22,348 bases of DNA from Thermofilaceae archaeon. Lineage in GTDB: Archaea; Thermoproteota; Thermoprotei; Thermofilales; Thermofilaceae. The translations under genes and the position numbers were made by a program. Positions 5,273 through 14,660 of the stretch are shown here, piece by piece. The stretch covers positions 1 through 22,348 of the forward strand of contig JAWCCZ010000008.1 of assembly GCA_038861545.1 (NCBI GenBank). The letters are read 5' to 3'. Position 1 is the first letter of the stretch; the number at the start of each line of letters is the position of its first letter. The notes beneath the pieces are model-generated. The model did not search any database, was not told where the DNA came from, and worked only from the letters and a program-made list of their open reading frames with translations.

Positions 5273-5890
5273 GTGTCAATAACGGTCAGCTTAGTTGAAT
5301 ACATCATAAACCTAATCGCTACTTTAGGGCTCGTAGGAGTATTAGCCTTGACTGCACTGGAGATACTACTAGCCCCGATCCCAGGCGAGGTGGTGATGAC
5401 TTTCGCCGGTTTCCTCATCAATACTGGAAAGTTCGGTTTCACAGAAGTTATTTTAGTTAGTATTACAGGGAACCTTATAGGTTCGCTTATATCCTATTGG
5501 ATAGGGTTAAAACTTGGTAGACCAGCTCTCTTAAAGATTGGAAGATACTTGCGATTCAGCGAGAGAGACCTGGAAGCCGCTGAGAATTTTTTCCAAAGAA
5601 AAGGATCTTTAGCTATTCTAGTCGGAAGGCTAGTGCCGGGATTAAGGTCGGTGATAAGCTTTCCAGCTGGTGTTGCCCATATGAACTTACAGGTTTTTAT
5701 CACGTTTACACTGTTCGGCAGCTTAGCTTGGAACGTTCTTTTCGTTTATATTGGCTTTCTGCTCGGTGAGAGGTGGTCAGAGATTACGGCTTACTCGGAA
5801 TATCTTGATGTAGTTGGAGTGGCTATTTTAATGCTCCTCGGGATCTACTTTATTTGGAGGTTAATGAGAAGATCAAACAAGCCTTTATAA
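5273..5890 (+). CDS. dedA: DedA family membrane protein
   Basis: Contains PIPGEVVMTFAG, GSLISYWIG and GRLVPGLRSVISFPAG motifs. Confidence 0.92.
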   Translation: MSITVSLVEYIINLIATLGLVGVLALTALEILLAPIPGEVVMTFAGFLINTGKFGFTEVILVSITGNLIGSLISYWIGLKLGRPALLKIGRYLRFSERDLEAAENFFQRKGSLAILVGRLVPGLRSVISFPAGVAHMNLQVFITFTLFGSLAWNVLFVYIGFLLGERWSEITAYSEYLDVVGVAILMLLGIYFIWRLMRRSNKPL

Positions 5891-5893
5891 ACC

Positions 5894-7597
5894 CTAAAAT
5901 AAGGTTTTCCAACCACACACTATGTATTCTTCCAGCACCCTCTCATAAGTTGCCAGTAAATGGCTGATTATTTGCCCCCATCTGTAGAGTTCTTCAACTC
6001 TTCTCCTTCCTCTGTAACCCATCTCCTGCGAACGGGGGTCGTTAAGTACGCGCTCGATAGCTTCTGCCAGCGCAGGTGAATCCTCTGGTGGTACAACTAT
6101 TCCAGTCTCATTATCGACTACTAACTCGCTTAAACCTCCAACCTTCGAGGCTACTATAGGCTTCGCCGCTGCCATAGCCTCCAGGGCAACAATTCCAAAT
6201 GGTTCGTATCGAGAAGGTATTGCAACAACATCGGCTATCTTCATCACCTTGTACAACTCATCATCGCTGAGCCTTCCTGTGAACAGGATTTTTTCGCCTA
6301 ATCCAAAGTAGCGCGCTAAATCCATCAGCTGAGCTCTCATCGGCCCATCGCCTGCGACTACAAACTTTACGTCATCTCGTTTAGACAGGACCATACGTGC
6401 GGCATTAACTAGTACATCCACTCCCTTATCGTATACGTGCCGTCCCGCGAAGAACACAATCTTTTCCCACGGTAAAGCGTAACGGCTCCGTTCTTCTGCT
6501 GACGGCGTACGAGCATCTATCTCCGCCAAGTCTATGCCATTAGGCAATACAGAAACCTTATCGCTAGGTAAAGAAAACGCTGCAGTAACCTCGTCTCGCA
6601 TGGATTTACTGCATACGAATACTCTCCAAGCTTCGTACGTTAACCTCCACTCCCAGTAGTGAATTTGGTGTTGCATAGGAGACCATATTCTCCCCCTGCT
6701 CCTGCCGTACTCCGTAGCGTGCATCGTGGCGATTAGCGGGATGCGGAGAATGTGTTTTAACGAAACTCCGGCTGGTGCTCCAAGCCAATCGTGAACATGT
6801 ATTATATCTGGGCGCGGAATACTCGTTAAAGCTTTGGCGATCATAAGCATGTTGAAGGCGTAAACCCACGATACGAGTCCTGTAGAACGTAGGAGGAAGG
6901 GATCAACACGTAAAACCCTTAGCTTATTCTCCGTTTCGTCGAATACGTGTCCGGGAAGCCCTATCGTTAGAATGTAGACGTTAACGCGCCTGGCCATTCT
7001 TCGAGCGATGCTTGTGACGGCTCTACCTAAGCCCCCGATTACGTGAGGTGGCCATTCCCAGGAAACGTGTACGACGTTGAATCCCTCAGGTTTGGATAAG
7101 CCGCAAAGTTGCTCGCGGCTCTTGGGTTTTTCTACGGCAAATCCCTTCCTTCTATGAATGACGACATCGGCCTCTTTTTGTAGGAAGTATTCTATACTTT
7201 TCACAGCTTCTGCTATAACGCCGCTCCCGCCTCTTTCCTCTTCTGTCGAGTACAGCGAGTACCTGAAAGTTTTCCCCAACCGTTTAGATAGAATATAAGC
7301 TAATAACGCTCCTCGCCACTCGTGCCCCTCAACAGCCTCTATACCACTCGGATCCAGTTTGTAGGGTAGCTCTGCAAGTGCCGTGAATACTTCCAGGAAA
7401 GCCTCTTCCACAACATCTGATGTAGGGATCTTTGGGGGTAGGCCAGCACCTACAATTTGTACATTTCCAATAGAGCTTCGTCCCTCATGGCCGAGGAGGA
7501 TCACAACACCCTCTTCTATGTTTTCTTTAACCCAGTAAGCGAGCTGACCTACCCCTTTAACCGGGTCAATCTCGGGAGCGACGTGAAGCACGGACAC
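5894..7597 (-). CDS. GT4 glycosyltransferase (GT-B) with an extra degenerate N-terminal domain
   Basis: Contains SWEWPPHVIGGLG, HVHDW, TMHATE, FAGRHVYDKG and PSRYEPFGIVALEAMA. An extra ~170-aa N-terminal segment precedes this core. Confidence 0.9.
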   Translation of the reverse strand: MSVLHVAPEIDPVKGVGQLAYWVKENIEEGVVILLGHEGRSSIGNVQIVGAGLPPKIPTSDVVEEAFLEVFTALAELPYKLDPSGIEAVEGHEWRGALLAYILSKRLGKTFRYSLYSTEEERGGSGVIAEAVKSIEYFLQKEADVVIHRRKGFAVEKPKSREQLCGLSKPEGFNVVHVSWEWPPHVIGGLGRAVTSIARRMARRVNVYILTIGLPGHVFDETENKLRVLRVDPFLLRSTGLVSWVYAFNMLMIAKALTSIPRPDIIHVHDWLGAPAGVSLKHILRIPLIATMHATEYGRSRGRIWSPMQHQIHYWEWRLTYEAWRVFVCSKSMRDEVTAAFSLPSDKVSVLPNGIDLAEIDARTPSAEERSRYALPWEKIVFFAGRHVYDKGVDVLVNAARMVLSKRDDVKFVVAGDGPMRAQLMDLARYFGLGEKILFTGRLSDDELYKVMKIADVVAIPSRYEPFGIVALEAMAAAKPIVASKVGGLSELVVDNETGIVVPPEDSPALAEAIERVLNDPRSQEMGYRGRRRVEELYRWGQIISHLLATYERVLEEYIVCGWKTLF

Positions 7598-7624
7598 ACT
7601 TACACGCCCGGCAGGCTTAGGACG

Positions 7625-7849
7625 TCAACAAAACGTACTATTCACTTTTAAAATGCCTAGTTCTGTTAGGTAAATTTTAACGCCCTTAATAACGAGGTAC
7701 GACATTTCGCTCAGGGATCTTAGCATTTCGGCCAGCTCGGACTCTGATGAGTTCAAGATCCTCGAGAGCTCGTCGACGGTCACTGCCTTGCTCTCCTCTA
7801 CTGCGGAAAGGGAATGAAGGGTCTTCAACAACTCAAACGGATCTAGCAT
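7625..7849 (-). CDS. Small winged helix-turn-helix protein
   Basis: TVDELSRIL...ELAEMLRSLSEMSYLV...IYLTELG is a typical wHTH pattern. It ends 27 bp upstream of the GT4 gene on the same strand. Confidence 0.75.
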   Translation of the reverse strand: MLDPFELLKTLHSLSAVEESKAVTVDELSRILNSSESELAEMLRSLSEMSYLVIKGVKIYLTELGILKVNSTFC

Positions 7850-7873
7850 AGCTGGATTTATATCAAACGGTAG

Positions 7874-7887
7874 CTAAAATTTTTTAG
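7874..7887. promoter_or_regulatory. Palindromic bidirectional TATA-like element CTAAAA-TT-TTTTAG
   Basis: The element edges lie exactly 25 nt from both divergent ATGs (7849 on -, 7912 on +). Confidence 0.6.
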
Positions 7888-7911
7888 GTTCTCTCATCTC
7901 AACACACGGTC

Positions 7912-9603
7912 ATGAGTAGAATCCTCGTTGAGCATTCAGTATGCCTTGTGGGGGAACGTGTTAGGGTTCTAACAGAGTGTGAACATGAAGATACTTTAAC
8001 AGTCTTAAAAGGAACCGAAAGGGTACACCGTGTAGGGGTATCAGCAGGCTCAGAAGTAGTGGAGTTTGAAATTAGTGAGGCTGGAGTTTATGAGTTAGTT
8101 TTAGAGGGGGCTAAAGTATCGGGATCCTTCGCCGCTCTAGAGCGCCCCGAAAAACCCCCCCTCCTGGCAATAGTTTTTCATAACCATCAAGCGCCAAATT
8201 ATTCTCCCGATGGTTCGATTAGAGAACCTTGGGCTTTTAAGCATGTGTGGGATAACGAATTTCACCCCTACTATAGGGGAGGGGCCTATTATTTGCAGGC
8301 CGCTCTGCTTTCCAGCTGGCGTATGCAGTGGAACGCCAACCTTTCTCCCAGTCTTCTTAAACAGTGGGCAGATCTTCTGGATAAAGGTATAATGTTAAAC
8401 GCTGGAGGTGTGTACATCGGCATAGACCCGGACAGCCCGACGGCTGGGATGGTTCGCGAAACGCTTGAAGGTTTTAGAGAATTGGTTAACAAGGGGTTAC
8501 TGGAGCTGATGACCAGTTTTTACTCACATCCCCTAGCCGGTTATCTAGCTGACGCATACGGCTGGCTCGATATCCTACGGGAAGAACTTAAGTGGGGTAA
8601 GGGCATTAGCGTGCAGGTGATGGGCGTTGAGCCGAAGGGCTTATGGCTACCGGAGTTATCTTTCTCGATGAAGCTTACTCGGCTGATGCGTGAGTGTGAA
8701 ATAGAGTTTACAGTGTTAGATTCAATGAACCACTTTACCGGGGCGGTAGGAGATAAAGGGTCTATTTACGAGCCTTACTTGCTCGATGACGTAATAGTAT
8801 TCTTCCGGCACACAGGTTTATCCGATTTGTGGAGCTTTAAGTATAGTAACGTTAAAAACCCTGCTGAAGCTGAGGTGGGAGCTAGGGACCTAGCTCTGAG
8901 GTTAGTTTTAGAGGCTTACGTGAATAAAGCAAAACCGTTAACAGTAGCGCTGGACGGGGAGAACTGGATGATTCTTCCCGAGCCGAAACCTTTCTCCGCT
9001 ATCCTATTCAACGGTTTGCTCGAGCAGCTTAAGTGGGCTGAAGATAAGGGGTTAGTGAAGCTTGTTAAACTTAGCGATCTCTTAGGGAAGGTGGAGCCAC
9101 GTAAACTGGTAAACGTGCCTTCACGTAGTTGGAGAGGGGGTTACGATAAATGGCTTACCGATAGAAGGGCGATGCAGGAGGCGATCTGGAGTAACATAGT
9201 TGATGCATACGAGCTCTACAAGGCGATCGATAATAGTTTGGGTTGCGGTAGCGAGGAAACGTTAGCTGTTATGCATACAGTTAACAGTGACCACATATGG
9301 GCCGAGTTCGCTGATGAAAGCTATGCAAGGGAGTGGGCCGAGTTTCTGAAAGGTAAGCTGCAAGAGGTAGTTTCATCGATTAAACTGGAGGGGTTTACCA
9401 GAGATAAACTGATTGTGCGATGGATTCACAATAAACCAACGAGAATTCTAGTGCGTACAGATGGACGTGCACAAATCTACACGTTGCAGCCAGGTCTTAA
9501 TGAGCTATACTTCGACGGTAGCAGCATAACGATTGCGTTAAAGGGTTGGACTAAAGAAGTGCTTATCGGAAAGCCTATAGTGAAGTACACTCCTACCTCC
9601 TGA
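7912..9603 (+). CDS. GH57 glycoside hydrolase, amylopullulanase-like signature, apparently cytoplasmic
   Basis: Has HNHQAP, FYSHPL, WLPELS (nucleophile E248), ALDGENW (acid/base D348) and NSDHIW. No signal peptide; beta-rich N- and C-terminal extensions. Confidence 0.88.
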   Translation: MSRILVEHSVCLVGERVRVLTECEHEDTLTVLKGTERVHRVGVSAGSEVVEFEISEAGVYELVLEGAKVSGSFAALERPEKPPLLAIVFHNHQAPNYSPDGSIREPWAFKHVWDNEFHPYYRGGAYYLQAALLSSWRMQWNANLSPSLLKQWADLLDKGIMLNAGGVYIGIDPDSPTAGMVRETLEGFRELVNKGLLELMTSFYSHPLAGYLADAYGWLDILREELKWGKGISVQVMGVEPKGLWLPELSFSMKLTRLMRECEIEFTVLDSMNHFTGAVGDKGSIYEPYLLDDVIVFFRHTGLSDLWSFKYSNVKNPAEAEVGARDLALRLVLEAYVNKAKPLTVALDGENWMILPEPKPFSAILFNGLLEQLKWAEDKGLVKLVKLSDLLGKVEPRKLVNVPSRSWRGGYDKWLTDRRAMQEAIWSNIVDAYELYKAIDNSLGCGSEETLAVMHTVNSDHIWAEFADESYAREWAEFLKGKLQEVVSSIKLEGFTRDKLIVRWIHNKPTRILVRTDGRAQIYTLQPGLNELYFDGSSITIALKGWTKEVLIGKPIVKYTPTS

Positions 9604-9654
9604 AGGCTGTTTCCATCCTTTTACTAATTCATTATCGCTCGAAGTAAAGTAGCG

Positions 9655-9672
9655 CGCTAAGATCTTATAATA
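9655..9672 (+). promoter_or_regulatory. TATA promoter of the inactive GH57-like gene
   Basis: CGCTAAGATC-TTATAATA ends 27 nt before ATG 9699. Confidence 0.5.
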
Positions 9673-9698
9673 GTAACTGGTATATAATTGAGCGATGG

Positions 9699-10775
9699 AT
9701 GGACTTTATAGTGTACTTAGAGGCTCACCAACCGCTTATTCTGAGAAAGCAGCCTAGAGAGCGTGTTACATCTTGGTTGGATCTAGTTGACGAGCATAGT
9801 TCAAGCTCTCTTTTCGAAATAGCTTTAAAAAAGTCTTACGAACCTTTGTTTAAACTTTTATCCGAGCTCGCGCCTACCGGGTTTAAAGTTGGCCTGAGGG
9901 TCAGCGGTATTTTACTTGATCAGGCTGAAAGATGGGGGAAGGTTTTTCTCGAGGAGTTAGCGAGCCTTGTGGCTAAAGGCGTGGTAGACCTAGTGGCCGG
10001 ACCTTACTATAATTCTATCACTTTTCTTCTCTCGCAAGATGAGTACGTCGAACAGGTTGAAATGCATGTAAAAAAACTAGTTGATTTATTTGGAGTTAGG
10101 CCGAAGGTTCTCTCAAATCCCTATTTAGCGTACAGCGATGAAGTTGGTCGGCTAGCGTATGATAAGCTTGAAATGCAGGCTGTCATAACAGAAGGGGCTT
10201 CCCAAGTGCTAGGCTGGAGAACGCCACATTTTGTCTATAGGCATCCAGTTCACCAGCTCAAGGTTTTGACAAGGGATCCGGAGCTAAGTAACGAAATAGC
10301 TTTCGGCTTAGGCAGATGGCTGAGAGCTGATTTCTTCACGGATAAAGTGACCCGCGTGGCCGGCTCAGTAGTGTTAGTAGGCGTTCCAATGGAGACTTTT
10401 GGCTTATCCGTTCCTAGGGAACAAGGGGCTTTCGACTTTTTACGCTGGCTTCCCCGCGAAGTTGCTAAGCGTCATTGGGTAAGGGTAGCTACACCGAGCG
10501 AGGTAGCGGCAAAAGAGCCGGTAGACCTTTTCACCTCTTTCAACGTGGTTACTTGGCTTGAGACAAAGGATCTGCGACCGTTAACAGAAAACCCTTTGCA
10601 GGCTGCTTTACTCTCACAGCTAGGTGATCTGCGAGAACATGCACGTGCCGCCGGCTTAATTGAAGCTTGGCGGCTTCTTACTCAAGTAGACCTGCTATAC
10701 GCGGCTAGAGGGGTTTCAACTTTTACTTCTGTTCAGAAGGCTATGTGTGCACTCTACGCTTCTGTAAGTCCGTAG
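9699..10775 (+). CDS. GH57 alpha-amylase-like protein lacking both catalytic residues
   Basis: Collinear with the 10741..12291 protein (EAHQP, PYYNSI, TEGASQVLGWRTPHFVY, FLRWLPREV). NTEL is replaced by NPYL and MDYET by VPMET. Confidence 0.85.
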   Translation: MDFIVYLEAHQPLILRKQPRERVTSWLDLVDEHSSSSLFEIALKKSYEPLFKLLSELAPTGFKVGLRVSGILLDQAERWGKVFLEELASLVAKGVVDLVAGPYYNSITFLLSQDEYVEQVEMHVKKLVDLFGVRPKVLSNPYLAYSDEVGRLAYDKLEMQAVITEGASQVLGWRTPHFVYRHPVHQLKVLTRDPELSNEIAFGLGRWLRADFFTDKVTRVAGSVVLVGVPMETFGLSVPREQGAFDFLRWLPREVAKRHWVRVATPSEVAAKEPVDLFTSFNVVTWLETKDLRPLTENPLQAALLSQLGDLREHARAAGLIEAWRLLTQVDLLYAARGVSTFTSVQKAMCALYASVSP

Positions 10776-12291
10776 TTTTCATGAAAGAAGCAGTTAACTC
10801 TTCTACTAGCCTTGACCTAAGCTCGTTACCTTTTAATCCCCTTAATTTCTCGATAGACGCCGCCAGCTCTTTTATACCTAAAACCCATCTAACCCATTCG
10901 GCTAAATGGCCGTGCTCAACGTGGTACTCTAAGCTCTTAGCTGGGACTGACTTGATGTAACCCAGCAAATCGAGGCCGTTTCTCGCTACGTAGGGAAGCG
11001 GAACACCGTTACTCTCGTAAAATTGGAAAACTCTATCCCGGCTGACGCTCTTCACCCATGGCGATTCAAATAGATTAACTCCAATTGCTTCGAAAACCCT
11101 TCTTTCTAAATCTGATAAGACATCATTAAACGCTGTAAAGGCGTTAAACGGAGAAGGGTAAGGGCTAAAATAACTATGCACTTCCCCTGGTCCCCCTCCC
11201 TTCATACTCATATAATAGTAATGGTCGCTAATAGTCAGTAATCTCCAAAGTCTTAAGAAAGTAGGTGATCCAGAAACTTTAGCAGGGAGCTCAAGTGCAC
11301 CCTCTCGAGCCAAGGCGAGAACTTGCATAGGATTGCCCACCCAAGCAGAAATATCTCTTTCTAGGTCAGCCCATGAGACCGGATCAACGACATCTATATA
11401 ATCAACTGGTTCATAGCGGCTAATCACCTCGCTTGGCGTAGCAAAACTCAAACCCCATTTAATAACTTCACGAGGTAACCATTCAAAGAATTCAAATATC
11501 CCGGTTTCAAGTGGGAAGTGCTCGCCTATAGTTTCGTAGTCCATAAACACACATATAACCTGCCCGGACGTTGATGCTAGCCACGAAGAGTATTTCGCGG
11601 CCGTCAGCGGATACTGGTTCCAATCACGCGAAGTAAACCTAAAGCCTACATCATCACTTAGACGGTAGTTTCTAAACAACACTTTAATATCAACTCCCTT
11701 AGCTCGGTAAACATAATTTGGCGATCTCCAGCCTAACAGTTTCTCGCTCCCCTCAGTCACAACTGCATTGAACTCCAGCTTAGCTGCAAGCTTAGCTAGG
11801 TGGTTATCATATATAAGTTCTGTGTTTTCAAAGACCTTTGGCCAAACGCCAAGCAGATCTCTAACAGTTTTCCTATGTTCCTCGACCTGATCTATGAATT
11901 CGTCATCTCCGAGCATGAAAGCAAGAGAATGGTAATATGTCTGACCAAGGATTTCGCAGCGATTATGATTGGCTATATGCTTAAAAAGATCCAGTGTATC
12001 ACGAGCCCAGCGTTCAGCCTGCTCTAAAAGGACTCCCGAAAAGCTGAATGAAACTCTAAACTCGCTGTATTCGTCTAGTAATTTTAAGAAAAGAGTTGTA
12101 GCCGGTTCATAGCATCGCGAAGCCACTCTTTGAAAAATTATTTTATTCAGTTCTTCGTCAAAATACATGCGTTCGAGGTCATCCGGCGCGAAGTCCTTTC
12201 CTTTAGAAATTACTTCATTCAGTTTATGCCTGAAAGCCATGTTAAGTCTGTAAGGTTGGTGTACCTCGAAGATTAGTACTATATCAGGCAC
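10741..12291 (-). CDS. amyA: GH57 alpha-amylase (MJ1611/AmyA-type) with C-terminal DUF5752-like domain
   Basis: Has FEVHQP, QTYYHSL, ENTELIY (E158), FMDYETIGEH (D251) and SDHYYYM. The C-terminus reads FQFY...SLEYH...GHLAEWVRWVLG..ELA. GTG start with AAGGAG SD. Confidence 0.9.
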   Translation of the reverse strand: MPDIVLIFEVHQPYRLNMAFRHKLNEVISKGKDFAPDDLERMYFDEELNKIIFQRVASRCYEPATTLFLKLLDEYSEFRVSFSFSGVLLEQAERWARDTLDLFKHIANHNRCEILGQTYYHSLAFMLGDDEFIDQVEEHRKTVRDLLGVWPKVFENTELIYDNHLAKLAAKLEFNAVVTEGSEKLLGWRSPNYVYRAKGVDIKVLFRNYRLSDDVGFRFTSRDWNQYPLTAAKYSSWLASTSGQVICVFMDYETIGEHFPLETGIFEFFEWLPREVIKWGLSFATPSEVISRYEPVDYIDVVDPVSWADLERDISAWVGNPMQVLALAREGALELPAKVSGSPTFLRLWRLLTISDHYYYMSMKGGGPGEVHSYFSPYPSPFNAFTAFNDVLSDLERRVFEAIGVNLFESPWVKSVSRDRVFQFYESNGVPLPYVARNGLDLLGYIKSVPAKSLEYHVEHGHLAEWVRWVLGIKELAASIEKLRGLKGNELRSRLVEELTASFMKTTDLQKRRVHT

Positions 12292-12374
12292 GGAATACTA
12301 CTCCTTTAGGTGCTATTATCTCTTTACTAGCTTCCAACGCTAACCATTTTGAGTACGCTAATCAGCTAATAGGC

Positions 12375-13895
12375 GTGCGGGTGTGGATTATAAGCTTTGA
12401 GTGTGGCGGTGTAGTCAAAGTAGGTGGTCTTGGGGAAGCAGTTCGAGGATATGCCGTAAGCTTGGCTGAGCGAGGGCATGACGTTCAAGTTTTAATGCCA
12501 AGCCATGGTGCAAAGGGGGAGCCGGAGTTCGACCTTGAAGGGTTTAAAGTTTATAAGCGTAAATTGGGTCAAGCTACTGTCCTCATGTTTTCAAATCCAG
12601 TGTTAGAGGAAGTAACTGTTTATTTTAACGGTCTTACAGAGGTTAAAGCTGCTAACTTAGCTAAAGCCGTCGCTAGCCTAGTAGAACATGAAGGTCCACC
12701 CGATGTAGTTCATTCAAATGATTGGCACGCCGTACCTGCAGGCATCGCGGCTCTCTCTACAGCTGAAACTCAAGGTCAAAGAACAGCTTTCATTTTTCAC
12801 GTACATCTGTATATTCACAGGTGGGTTAGTTGGGATTACATTTTCTCCGAATGCTGCCTGAACCCGGATACGACCTTAAGAGGGTTAAAACTTGGTGAGG
12901 TATACCTACGCGCTAGCGGTGTGCTTGAAGCGATTGCAGCAATGGTAGCTGATAAGATAGTTACTGTTAGTAAATCATACGTTAATGAGGTTCTCGCTCC
13001 GACTATAGGATGGATTGCTGGAGATAAACTTACTCATGTTCATAACGGTACGGACTGGAGCCTTGAACAACTATATGAAGAGGTAAAGAAGCTACACGGT
13101 TCAAGCATCTGGCGTGAGTGTGAATCAGCTAGGCCTTCAAGGCGAATCCTAAGGAGGTACTTATTAACCCAAGCTTTAGCACAAGCTGAACCTGAAATTA
13201 GGGACCCGGCTTTTTACTGGCTTCCCCGGAAGGTTGAAGTTTTCCCCTCGGATGGCCCCTTAATATTAACTACTGGACGGGCCAGCTGGCAAAAGGGTTT
13301 TGACACATTGATATTTGCAGCTGACAGGCTCCGAGGGTTGATACCTAACCTCAGACTTTTACTATTACTGATCCCTGTAAGGGGTGAAGAGGGTCACTTA
13401 AACTGGCTTCTGAACGAAGCTACTCGGAGAGATTACGTTAGAGTAATAGTTGGCCATGCTAAAAATATCTACGCGCTAGCCCATTTAGGGGCAAACGCTT
13501 TCGCTGTACCAAGTAGGTGGGAACCCTTTGGTTTAACTGCTATCGAAGCCATGGCATCAGGGGTGCCAGTAGCAGCAAGCAGAGTGGGCGGGCTAAAGGA
13601 AACAGTTATCGATCTCAGGGAGAATCCATGGGGTACTGGTTACTTAGTGGAGCCTGAAAATCCGGAAGAACTAGCTAAAGCTTTGGCTTCCTTACTTTCG
13701 ATTACAGCAAGGGATGATTTAACCGAGACTGGTGTACTCGAAAGCATAGAGAGTTTCTGCTTACCTTACCCCTCGCTTACTGGAGATGAGCTACGGAGAA
13801 GATGCATTAAAAGAGTTGATGCAGAGTTTAGGTGGAGCAAATCTGCTGAGAAAATGGAACAGGTTTACTTAAGTGTATTAAGCAGGTCAAGCTAA
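12375..13895 (+). CDS. glgA: Glycogen/starch synthase (GT5)
   Basis: Has SFECGGVVKVGGLGE (KxGGL), HSNDWH, TVSKSY, GRASWQKGFD, PSRWEPFGLTAIEAMASG and RVGGLKETV. Confidence 0.9.
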   Translation: MRVWIISFECGGVVKVGGLGEAVRGYAVSLAERGHDVQVLMPSHGAKGEPEFDLEGFKVYKRKLGQATVLMFSNPVLEEVTVYFNGLTEVKAANLAKAVASLVEHEGPPDVVHSNDWHAVPAGIAALSTAETQGQRTAFIFHVHLYIHRWVSWDYIFSECCLNPDTTLRGLKLGEVYLRASGVLEAIAAMVADKIVTVSKSYVNEVLAPTIGWIAGDKLTHVHNGTDWSLEQLYEEVKKLHGSSIWRECESARPSRRILRRYLLTQALAQAEPEIRDPAFYWLPRKVEVFPSDGPLILTTGRASWQKGFDTLIFAADRLRGLIPNLRLLLLLIPVRGEEGHLNWLLNEATRRDYVRVIVGHAKNIYALAHLGANAFAVPSRWEPFGLTAIEAMASGVPVAASRVGGLKETVIDLRENPWGTGYLVEPENPEELAKALASLLSITARDDLTETGVLESIESFCLPYPSLTGDELRRRCIKRVDAEFRWSKSAEKMEQVYLSVLSRSS

Positions 13896-13913: not shown

Positions 13914-14660
13914 CTAACTGCGCAAATGGGTAGAACCCAATTGGAAACGGTCATACCCAGGTTTAAAATCGACTCGCATGTTCTTCTCCCCTTCAACCTG
14001 GCACAAGATCCATAGGTAATTTATGCCAACCCCTGGCGATCCTACGTTAGGATGGTATCCTCTACAGATTACCACAGCGTCATAGTTCTTAACCATATAC
14101 AAATCCGCGTTATTTTCATCTTCAACTATTTGTACTCCAAAACCGTCCTCTAAACCATAGTATACATACACCTCCAGCTTATCGTCATGTTTATGTGGTG
14201 GAAAACTAGTCCATTCGCCCGGAAAACCCTCCGTGTAACCGGCGAGTAGGCTGCAGCTAGGATCTTTTTCACCAATCGCCACGTAAACTTTTCGTCTGTA
14301 CCCTTGCATACCGGTGATAACAGGCTGTATCTCTACAAATCTCCTAATTATTGACAAGCCCTTACTTTTTGCCACAGCTTCAGCCACCACTACTAGACAT
14401 TCATTACTGTACAACTTAAGTTCGCTTGGACCCGACAAATATAGTGTATCTCTACAACCGATTTCTATGGATGCGCCATCAACATCAACATCGCACCGGC
14501 CCTTTAAGCAGGCTATAACCATCTCCCTGTTCTTAGCTAACTTATAACTCTCCGTACCGGTTAACAAAGCCCATTTGAACGTACATTTATGACAGGAATA
14601 AAGTTCAATTAAACCAGACGGCTCTTTCAATGCTTTAATGGCAATTGATCTAGGGCTCAT
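13914..14660 (-). CDS. iolB: IolB/KduI-family cupin (5-deoxy-glucuronate isomerase-like)
   Basis: Has GEWTSFPPHKHD, LEVYVY, GYHPNV and YLWIL. A TTTTTAATA TATA lies about 23-30 nt upstream. Confidence 0.85.
   Translation of the reverse strand: MSPRSIAIKALKEPSGLIELYSCHKCTFKWALLTGTESYKLAKNREMVIACLKGRCDVDVDGASIEIGCRDTLYLSGPSELKLYSNECLVVVAEAVAKSKGLSIIRRFVEIQPVITGMQGYRRKVYVAIGEKDPSCSLLAGYTEGFPGEWTSFPPHKHDDKLEVYVYYGLEDGFGVQIVEDENNADLYMVKNYDAVVICRGYHPNVGSPGVGINYLWILCQVEGEKNMRVDFKPGYDRFQLGSTHLRS

Follow-up and report, generated by a model that had tools for sequence, protein, structure and literature searches.

Many archaea store glycogen, and most Thermoproteota lack a recognisable branching enzyme; reviews consider that an unidentified archaeal branching enzyme may exist (PMC12525153). 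The closest described system is the amyA-glgA pair of Sulfolobus acidocaldarius, an organism without GlgB, in which both genes are present on one transcript. Markerless deletion of amyA (Saci_1200) abolishes glycogen and complementation restores it, showing that a GH57 "amylase" is unexpectedly needed for glycogen synthesis (PMC8158581). Here, we analysed a stretch of 22,348 nucleotides (the window) from an uncultured hot-spring Thermofilaceae archaeon (GenBank assembly GCA_038861545.1, contig JAWCCZ010000008.1, positions 1 to 22,348). Six of its genes encode a GT4 glycosyltransferase with a fused N-terminal half-glycosyltransferase domain (half-GT), a small winged helix-turn-helix protein (wHTH), three GH57 proteins, one of them without catalytic residues, and a GT5 glycogen synthase, GlgA (Table 1). 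Together they probably form a locus for cytoplasmic synthesis and turnover of a glycogen-like alpha-glucan, which combines two modules. As predicted from gene neighbourhoods, module A consists of the wHTH, the half-GT, a GT4 resembling glgA_Coryne and Rv3032, and an alpha-amylase-type GH57, usually with a DUF5752 tail; it is widespread in Thermoproteota, often together with an amylopullulanase-type GH57 on a divergent transcript. Module B is the combination classical for Crenarchaea, in which an alpha-amylase-type GH57 is paired with GT5 GlgA.

In our assessment, the Sulfolobus pair is the strongest functional anchor for this locus, and the amyA knockout is the only link of an alpha-amylase-type GH57 to synthesis. 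In both systems such a GH57 adjoins a GT5 glgA gene, the location is cytoplasmic and the genome has no recognisable GlgB; the GH57 fingerprints EVHQP, ENTEL, DYETxGEH and SDHYYY are common to both. However, the window pair is divergent, whereas the Sulfolobus pair is co-transcribed, and the window GH57 has a probable DUF5752 tail and a dead paralogue. Where the Sulfolobus cluster has the GH13 TreX, a GH15 glucoamylase and GlgC, the window contains the GT4, half-GT and wHTH together with an amylopullulanase-type GH57.

Rv3032-like GT4 enzymes have been proposed as archaeal glycogen synthases, in general terms only (PMC6355812). The window GT4 resembles the actinobacterial enzymes GlgM (PDB 6TVP) and Rv3032 in its retaining GT4 fold, its E-x7-E motif and its best NCBIfam model, glgA_Coryne (TIGR02149). 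It differs from them in that this full-length match reaches 180 bits and thus falls below the cut-off of 302, that the genome has no GlgE (GH13), that an extra N-terminal domain is present and that the gene follows a small wHTH gene. To our knowledge, neither the extra domain nor the preceding wHTH gene occurs with the actinobacterial enzymes.

Enzyme and pseudoenzyme pairs are familiar from plant starch metabolism (ISA1/ISA2 and the BAM pseudoenzymes), and GtfA/GtfB and Alg13/Alg14 are two-protein glycosyltransferases. The locus shares with these systems a dead paralogue or a partial GT-B beside an active enzyme of the same family; the families, however, are unrelated, and heteromer formation is here predicted at most. 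Moreover, Alg13/Alg14 split one GT-B over two chains, whereas the window combines a complete GT-B with an additional N-terminal domain. The individual families and the class of dead GH57 proteins are already known. The wHTH/half-GT/GT4/GH57-DUF5752 module with its fusions, and a lineage-specific, selected pseudo-GH57 beside its active paralogue, appear to be undescribed in the searchable literature. The locus thereby names three conserved unstudied partners (half-GT, small winged-helix protein and DUF5752 domain) and provides a natural enzyme and pseudoenzyme pair. Its genes are clonable candidates for work on the priming, branching and regulation of glycogen in archaea, and for thermostable starch-modifying enzymes.

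Gene neighbourhoods point to a conserved core in Thermoproteota

A half-GT profile matched 153 of 401 Thermoproteota genomes, typically as an open reading frame (ORF) of about 200 amino acids with a GT4 of about 400 amino acids directly after it, and an alpha-amylase-type GH57 was found in 214 of the same genomes. Listed coordinates of both sets of matches were cross-matched by hand, which placed half-GT and GH57 at most 12 kb apart in about 59 of the 75 cross-matched genomes. In many cases some 0.36 kb separate the two, which corresponds to the length of the wHTH gene, and a wHTH gene lies upstream of half-GT/GT4 throughout the phylum (it was kept in 10 sampled loci). In family f20 half-GT and GH57 occur in the same 7 of 17 genomes, and families f9, f17, f26 and f32 have the GH57 without the trio of wHTH, half-GT and GT4. 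As judged from these data, the conserved core is the trio, usually accompanied by an alpha-amylase-type GH57 with DUF5752 tail; GlgA, which a preliminary description of the window had counted as one of two synthase-type glycosyltransferases, is not part of it. Across the phylum, the same GH57 type goes with either kind of synthase.

Within the Thermofilales, the order GT4(-), wHTH(-), GH57(+), dead GH57(+), GH57(-) is kept in five other metagenome-assembled genomes of Thermofilaceae/Thermofilales, with protein identities of 52-93%. Together with the linkage across classes, this bears out the expectation that related genomes keep the genes linked. Two of the five also have GlgA next in order; in one it lies elsewhere in the genome and in another it was not found. 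Within the order (41 genomes), dead GH57 and fused GT4 are restricted to genera g1, g2 and g8; both are absent from the eight g9 genomes, several of which are closed. In families f2 and f3 the wHTH, half-GT and GT4 form one operon with a tail-less GH57, and an amylopullulanase-type GH57 and a GT35-like phosphorylase are encoded opposite that operon.

In eight sampled loci from outside the order, the neighbours of the half-GT include the wHTH, GH57-DUF5752, GDE_C, a GH13 branching enzyme with CBM48, a ROK kinase, a GalT-like transferase, GH15 and a second GT4; in other classes the surroundings of the trio also comprise a GT35-like phosphorylase. Several loci of other lineages (L018, L035, L037 and L040) have, beside the trio, a second GT4 that differs from that of the trio. 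Two loci deserve separate mention. In L036 (G056:C1:212000-231000) a GH13 branching enzyme (CBM48) shares its operon with wHTH, half-GT, GT4 and ROK kinase, beside GH57-DUF5752 and a GalT-like gene, which joins the trio directly to a classical GlgB. L039 (G186:C3:92000-111000), probably from Bathyarchaeia, has two half-GT/GT4 pairs, a GT4 with C-terminal wHTH, a 168-amino-acid DUF5752 protein in the slot upstream of a half-GT, GH57-DUF5752, a second GH57 and GH15. A wHTH-DUF5752 fusion in this 168-amino-acid protein was considered and rejected, the N-terminal wHTH match reaching only an E-value of 0.006 and a probability of 6%.

The GT4 carries an additional N-terminal domain

Pfam GT4 domains cover residues 176-555 of the 567-amino-acid protein, and residues 1-170 have no Pfam match. 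PDB sequence matches of the GT4 are SPS, GlgM and MshA; its AlphaFold2 model (pLDDT 78) has P. abyssi GlgA, MshA, SPS and GlgM as top Foldseek matches. The fold class is retaining, with E-x7-E present. By similarity, the GT4 is closest to glgA_Coryne, GlgM and Rv3032 and is predicted to act outside the GlgM/GlgE pathway. That pathway was rejected for this organism, as its 92%-complete genome has no GH13 and hence no GlgE for maltose-1-phosphate.

A direct BLAST comparison of the N-terminal extension with the GT4 part of the same protein gave no significant match (E 0.14), so that profile comparison, transitive homology and fold searches were needed. In hhalign, the half-GT aligned with the N-domain of the same protein's GT4 over 125 collinear columns with a P-value of 0.0012, compared with 0.33 for the C-domain control, and the order of its secondary structure elements repeats that of the true GT4 N-domain. 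Modelled alone with AlphaFold2, the half-GT reached a pLDDT of 90. A fold search returned 19 PDB matches at E <= 0.001, all 19 of them GT4/GT5 enzymes (TM scores up to 0.74), among them MshA, GlgM, sucrose synthase and the glycogen synthases of P. abyssi and E. coli. At the position of the glycine loop GGLG, the half-GT has KGVGQLA. Residues 1-150 are conserved to the same degree as the catalytic core, with many invariant columns; the linker to the GT4 core (residues 151-172) is variable and disordered. For the whole GT4, dN/dS is 0.056, a rough value with dS near saturation.

In a search of 5.8 billion proteins only 7 fused half-GT-GT4 homologues were found, all highly conserved. In other Thermofilales families the half-GT is a separate ORF of 193-202 amino acids, and that of L016 exceeds the Pfam cut-offs for Glyco_transf_5 and Glyco_transf_4. 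In G002, G006 and G013 the half-GT gene and the GT4 gene that follows it (404-407 amino acids) overlap by 4 nt or abut, and half-GT and GT4 are thus predicted to be translationally coupled in other lineages. Stand-alone half-GTs of 194-218 amino acids fall into at least 117 clusters, mostly from Bathyarchaeia and automatically annotated as glycosyltransferase or glycogen synthase. Since the half-GT is a separate ORF in other lineages, the extension of the window GT4, a degenerate GT-B N-domain, is explained by gene fusion; the degenerate duplicated GT4 domain of the preliminary description is a fused copy of a separate gene and no internal duplication. A split GT-B of the Alg13/Alg14 type does not apply, and the half-GT is a supernumerary N-domain, because the partner GT4 holds both GT-B halves.

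The winged-helix protein and a shared palindrome

The 74-amino-acid protein encoded upstream of the GT4 has sub-threshold matches to the DtxR/MntR, MarR, Rrf2 and TrmB wHTH families. Its best score is 25 bits for Fe_dep_repress (cut-off 26), and many wHTH families score weakly. In G186 the cluster-specific wHTH is fused in frame to the C-terminus of a GT4 (hhalign 98.3%, E 1.4e-14). The region between the wHTH gene and the divergent GH57 gene contains the palindrome CTAAAATTTTTTAG. The same 14-mer is present in L011, L012 and L013, a one-base variant in L015 and degenerate forms in L019 and L014; it is likely a shared A/T-rich promoter or operator element.

Two alpha-amylase-type GH57 proteins, one without catalytic residues

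A GH57 was regarded as active when it scored above the PF03065 cut-off (21.2 bits) and had Glu as nucleophile in conserved sequence region 3 (CSR-3) and Asp as proton donor in CSR-4. The 516-amino-acid GH57 has both, with intact catalytic residues in NTEL and MDYET. Its fingerprint (EVHQP, ENTELI, FMDYETIGEH, SDHYYY) resembles those of S. acidocaldarius Saci_1200, T. pendens ABL77545 and proteins of 512-519 amino acids from cultured Thermofilum/Staphylothermus. The C-terminal tail matches DUF5752 (PF19027) with 19 bits within the whole protein and exceeds the cut-off of 23 bits when scanned alone (Table 1). Structural comparison in the Atlas with stand-alone DUF5752 proteins and GH57-DUF5752 fusions gave TM scores of 0.79-0.80, and a DUF5752-like domain, as previously noted, is probable. 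The domain recurs widely, alone or fused to GH57, to sugar nucleotidyltransferases and to HAD sugar-phosphatases; a literature search on DUF5752 found no paper.

The neighbouring 358-amino-acid protein is 35% identical to this GH57 (E 2e-62) and lacks the tail, and its nucleophile Glu is replaced by Tyr and the catalytic Asp by Pro. In the search of 5.8 billion proteins 14 orthologues were found, all of which have NPYL and VPxETFG in place of the catalytic motifs and retain HQP, the glutamate in ETxG and the aspartate of CSR-5. We take these retained residues to be substrate-binding positions. In a phylogenetic tree the orthologues form one clade with 100% support and a long stem, whose inner branching mirrors that of the neighbouring active paralogue; the tree did not place it with respect to the active GH57 clades, tailed or tail-less. 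The dead GH57 always adjoins the active paralogue. Between the window and its congener L011, dN/dS of the dead GH57 is roughly 0.075, and that of neighbouring genes 0.03-0.10, at a dS near saturation. All 14 orthologues share these motifs and form one clade, and dN/dS is low; the protein is therefore considered a maintained pseudoenzyme under purifying selection, and the pseudo-GH57 of the preliminary description is real and conserved.

"Alpha-amylase-like" GH57 proteins without catalytic residues are a known class (PMC6037648). The 358-amino-acid protein belongs here, since its nearest relatives are alpha-amylase-type GH57s and both catalytic residues are replaced, members of the class lacking one or both (Janecek and Blesak 2011; PMC6037648). 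Unlike these, it has the CSR-3 motif NPYLA, which is not among the 1602 sequences compiled there (PMC6037648), and its clade is limited to three genera of uncultured Thermofilaceae, adjoins an active paralogue and is under purifying selection. The TATA-like sequences CTTATAAT and TATATAAT lie upstream of the dead GH57 within 9604-9698, with a counterpart, CTTATATA, in L011, which suggests that the gene has its own promoter. We know of no function for any member of the alpha-amylase-like group.

Amylopullulanase-type GH57, GlgA and the remaining pathway genes

The 563-amino-acid GH57 also scores above the PF03065 cut-off, and its catalytic Glu (WLPELS) and Asp (ALDGENWMIL) are intact. The motifs HNHQx, WLPEL and ALDGENWMIL fit the Vulcanisaeta and Thermofilum rows for the amylopullulanase-cyclomaltodextrinase subfamily (table of Martinovicova and Janecek 2018, PMC6037648), to which the protein is assigned by sequence; characterised members of this subfamily are hydrolases (PMC6037648). 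The best PDB match and closest solved relative is 7E1Y (residues 83-488), the amylopullulanase of Staphylothermus marinus (PMC12106739; Li et al. 2013). Both proteins have WxPE and DGENW and N- and C-terminal regions outside the aligned core; in contrast to 7E1Y, the window protein is intracellular, lies inside a synthase cluster and has a predicted activity. An apparent 939-amino-acid fusion of amylopullulanase-type and dead GH57 in G030/L014 proved to be an out-of-frame open frame.

GlgA contains PF08323 (100 bits) and PF00534 (94 bits), with VKVGGLG and EPFGLTAIE (E-x7-E) as expected for GT5. Against TIGR02095 it reaches 146.7 bits, below the curated cut-off of 328. It is assigned at the family level by its domains, because by sequence it is a divergent archaeal form below that cut-off. 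Across the 41 Thermofilales genomes, GlgA and GT4 are nearly complementary, and only g1 and g8 carry both. A KduI/IolB-family gene (13914-14660, minus strand) comes after GlgA in the window, L011 and L012. In L015, from a genome in which GlgA was not found, the KduI/IolB gene (L015:5088-5639) comes straight after the GH57, so that GlgA has the appearance of a variable insertion here.

Searches of the genome, which is 92% complete, detected no GH13 (PF00128), GH15, GH77 or GDE_C. Other contigs encode an alpha-glucan phosphorylase (TIGR02094, 306 bits), a ROK kinase and four NTP-transferases, with RmlA, a GalU-like enzyme and a GlgC-like nucleotidyltransferase among the genes found there. The weak Pfam match of a fourth GH57 (G000:C1:526623-530093) is a 1157-amino-acid ORF that appears GH38-like by its GHAHIDTAW motif and does not belong to the glucan system; on this reading the genome has no GH57 beyond the three in the window.

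Interpretation of the locus

Glucan-enzyme domains, the absence of signal peptides and the linkage kept in relatives agree with the cytoplasmic alpha-glucan system proposed earlier, and we consider this reading probable. NDP-glucose would be made by GalU/GlgC-like enzymes encoded elsewhere, and alpha-1,4 chains would be polymerised by GlgA, the GT4 or both. The half-GT, with its glycine loop lost, may give the GT4 an extra acceptor-binding or oligomerisation surface. The active GH57 would be needed in synthesis, as its counterpart in Sulfolobus is, and might trim, transfer or possibly branch chains, and the dead paralogue with its substrate-binding residues could be a non-catalytic glucan-binding or partner subunit. 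The polymer would be degraded by the amylopullulanase-type GH57 and the phosphorylase encoded elsewhere. Finally, the winged-helix protein may serve either as a subunit of a complex with the GT4 or as a local regulator of the divergent promoter that contains the palindrome.

The preliminary description had envisaged a multi-protein assembly with non-catalytic parts. These parts are real and conserved: dN/dS of the dead GH57 is low, the half-GT is as conserved as the catalytic core and the DUF5752 tail is recurrent. The assembly itself receives indirect support from the half-GT-GT4, GT4-wHTH and GH57-DUF5752 fusions and the 4-nt half-GT/GT4 overlaps; gene fusions suggest physical or functional coupling. 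For priming or branching by a GH57, also proposed there, the sequences give no support, one GH57 falling in a hydrolysing and debranching subfamily and the other being of the alpha-amylase type, and such a role is speculation. A further-reaching proposal, that wHTH, half-GT, GT4 and DUF5752-tailed GH57 constitute a so far unrecognised, phylum-wide archaeal glycogen synthase complex in which the GH57, helped here by its dead paralogue in the manner of ISA2 and ISA1, provides the priming or branching that GlgB-less Thermoproteota lack, seems to us rather unlikely.

Several points weigh against the favoured reading. The GT4 stays below the cut-off of every NCBIfam model and is about equally close to MshA, SPS, BshA and to GlgM, so that glucan is a putative acceptor. 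A recognisable branching enzyme is missing, and the product may thus be linear or unlike glycogen. GT4 and GlgA are both present in this genome, which runs counter to simple redundancy. The linkage has gaps: in family f10 (L034 and L041; G204 and G153) half-GT and wHTH lie beside an amylopullulanase-type GH57 and no full GT4 was found within 19 kb, so that the half-GT can occur without an adjoining partner, and the trio of family f40 is on another contig than the GH57. The dN/dS values are rough because dS is near saturation (1-2). We infer every activity and every physical contact, and the contacts are argued entirely from fusions and operon structure.

The ambiguous relationship of the GT4, which fits GlgM, MshA, SPS and BshA about as well as glycogen synthases, would also suit a different product. 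The trio might make another glucoside, such as a maltooligosaccharide primer, alpha-maltose-1-phosphate (GlgM), a methylglucose-polysaccharide-like oligomer (Rv3032) or a compatible solute, leaving GlgA alone to elongate glycogen and the GH57s to process the products. Two non-redundant transferases are suggested by the second GT4 beside the trio in several loci of other lineages and by GlgA here, and the ROK kinase and GalT-like genes co-located with the trio fit this as well. However, the lack of GH13 means that no GlgE could consume maltose-1-phosphate, Thermofilales with GT4 and without detectable GT5 GlgA still have phosphorylase, GDE and GH57 around the GT4, and the operon of G056 joins GlgB to wHTH, half-GT and GT4; we regard another glucoside as an improbable alternative.

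It is very improbable that the locus is mainly catabolic, with intracellular amylopullulanase and alpha-amylase degrading imported maltodextrins or cyclodextrins next to unrelated glycosyltransferases. The hydrolases characterised in the amylopullulanase-cyclomaltodextrinase subfamily and an ABC-2 transporter upstream in the window would fit, but this transporter is of the exporter type and has no sugar-binding protein, and GH13, GH15 and GH77 are missing to complete a maltodextrin pathway. Moreover, the GT4-GH57 linkage persists across classes, and GlgA divergent to the active GH57 parallels the Sulfolobus amyA-glgA linkage. About as improbable is that dead GH57, half-GT and DUF5752 tail are roleless evolutionary leftovers and the wHTH an ordinary local transcription factor, with no assembly formed. 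A winged-helix fold typical of regulators and the conserved palindrome in the divergent promoter speak for it, as does the fact that the assembly is a prediction; it is contradicted by the low dN/dS of the dead GH57 and the whole GT4, the many invariant columns of the half-GT, the retention of the half-GT gene across classes in translational coupling to GT4, and the in-frame fusion of wHTH to GT4 in G186.

Gene arrangement and neighbouring features

The six ORFs of the preliminary description were all found with their order and domains as given there (Table 1); they are arranged as two divergent pairs and one tail-to-tail pair. None of the six proteins has a signal-like N-terminus on inspection, in agreement with the earlier statement that signal peptides are missing. 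No membrane segments or hydrophobic N-termini were found in them, all Kyte-Doolittle windows of 19 residues being at or below 1.62. GlgC, GH13 and phosphorylase are, as had been reported, not encoded within the window.

Table 1. Coordinates of genes, domains and the palindrome at the alpha-glucan locus
Feature	Position	Strand	Size or extent	Remarks
GT4 with fused N-terminal half-GT	5894-7597	-	567 aa	Pfam PF00534, PF13439, PF13692
GT4 core	5897-7081	-	residues ~173-567	GGLG, HVHDW, E-x7-E kept
half-GT domain	7148-7597	-	GT4 residues 1-150	degenerate GT-B N-terminal Rossmann domain
Small winged-helix protein (wHTH)	7625-7849	-	74 aa	sub-threshold wHTH matches; no effector domain
Palindrome CTAAAATTTTTTAG	7874-7887			inside 62-bp divergent intergenic region 7850-7911
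Amylopullulanase-cyclomaltodextrinase-type GH57	7912-9603	+	563 aa	PF03065 112 bits; 7E1Y E 8e-75
GH57 pseudoenzyme, alpha-amylase-like	9699-10775	+	358 aa	PF03065 159 bits; both catalytic residues replaced
Alpha-amylase-type GH57, predicted active	10741-12291	-	516 aa	PF03065 272 bits
Probable C-terminal DUF5752 domain of 516-aa GH57	10744-11109	-	residues ~395-516	24.3 bits scanned alone
GT5 GlgA	12375-13895	+	506 aa	PF08323 and PF00534; divergent from active GH57

The flanking genes have no relation to glucans and comprise ABC-2 transporter genes, desulfoferrodoxin, FmdE, DedA/VTT, KduI/IolB and a transglutaminase-like gene. The DedA/VTT-domain membrane protein is encoded at 5273-5890 on the plus strand, convergent with the GT4, and occupies the same position in L011, L012 and L013.

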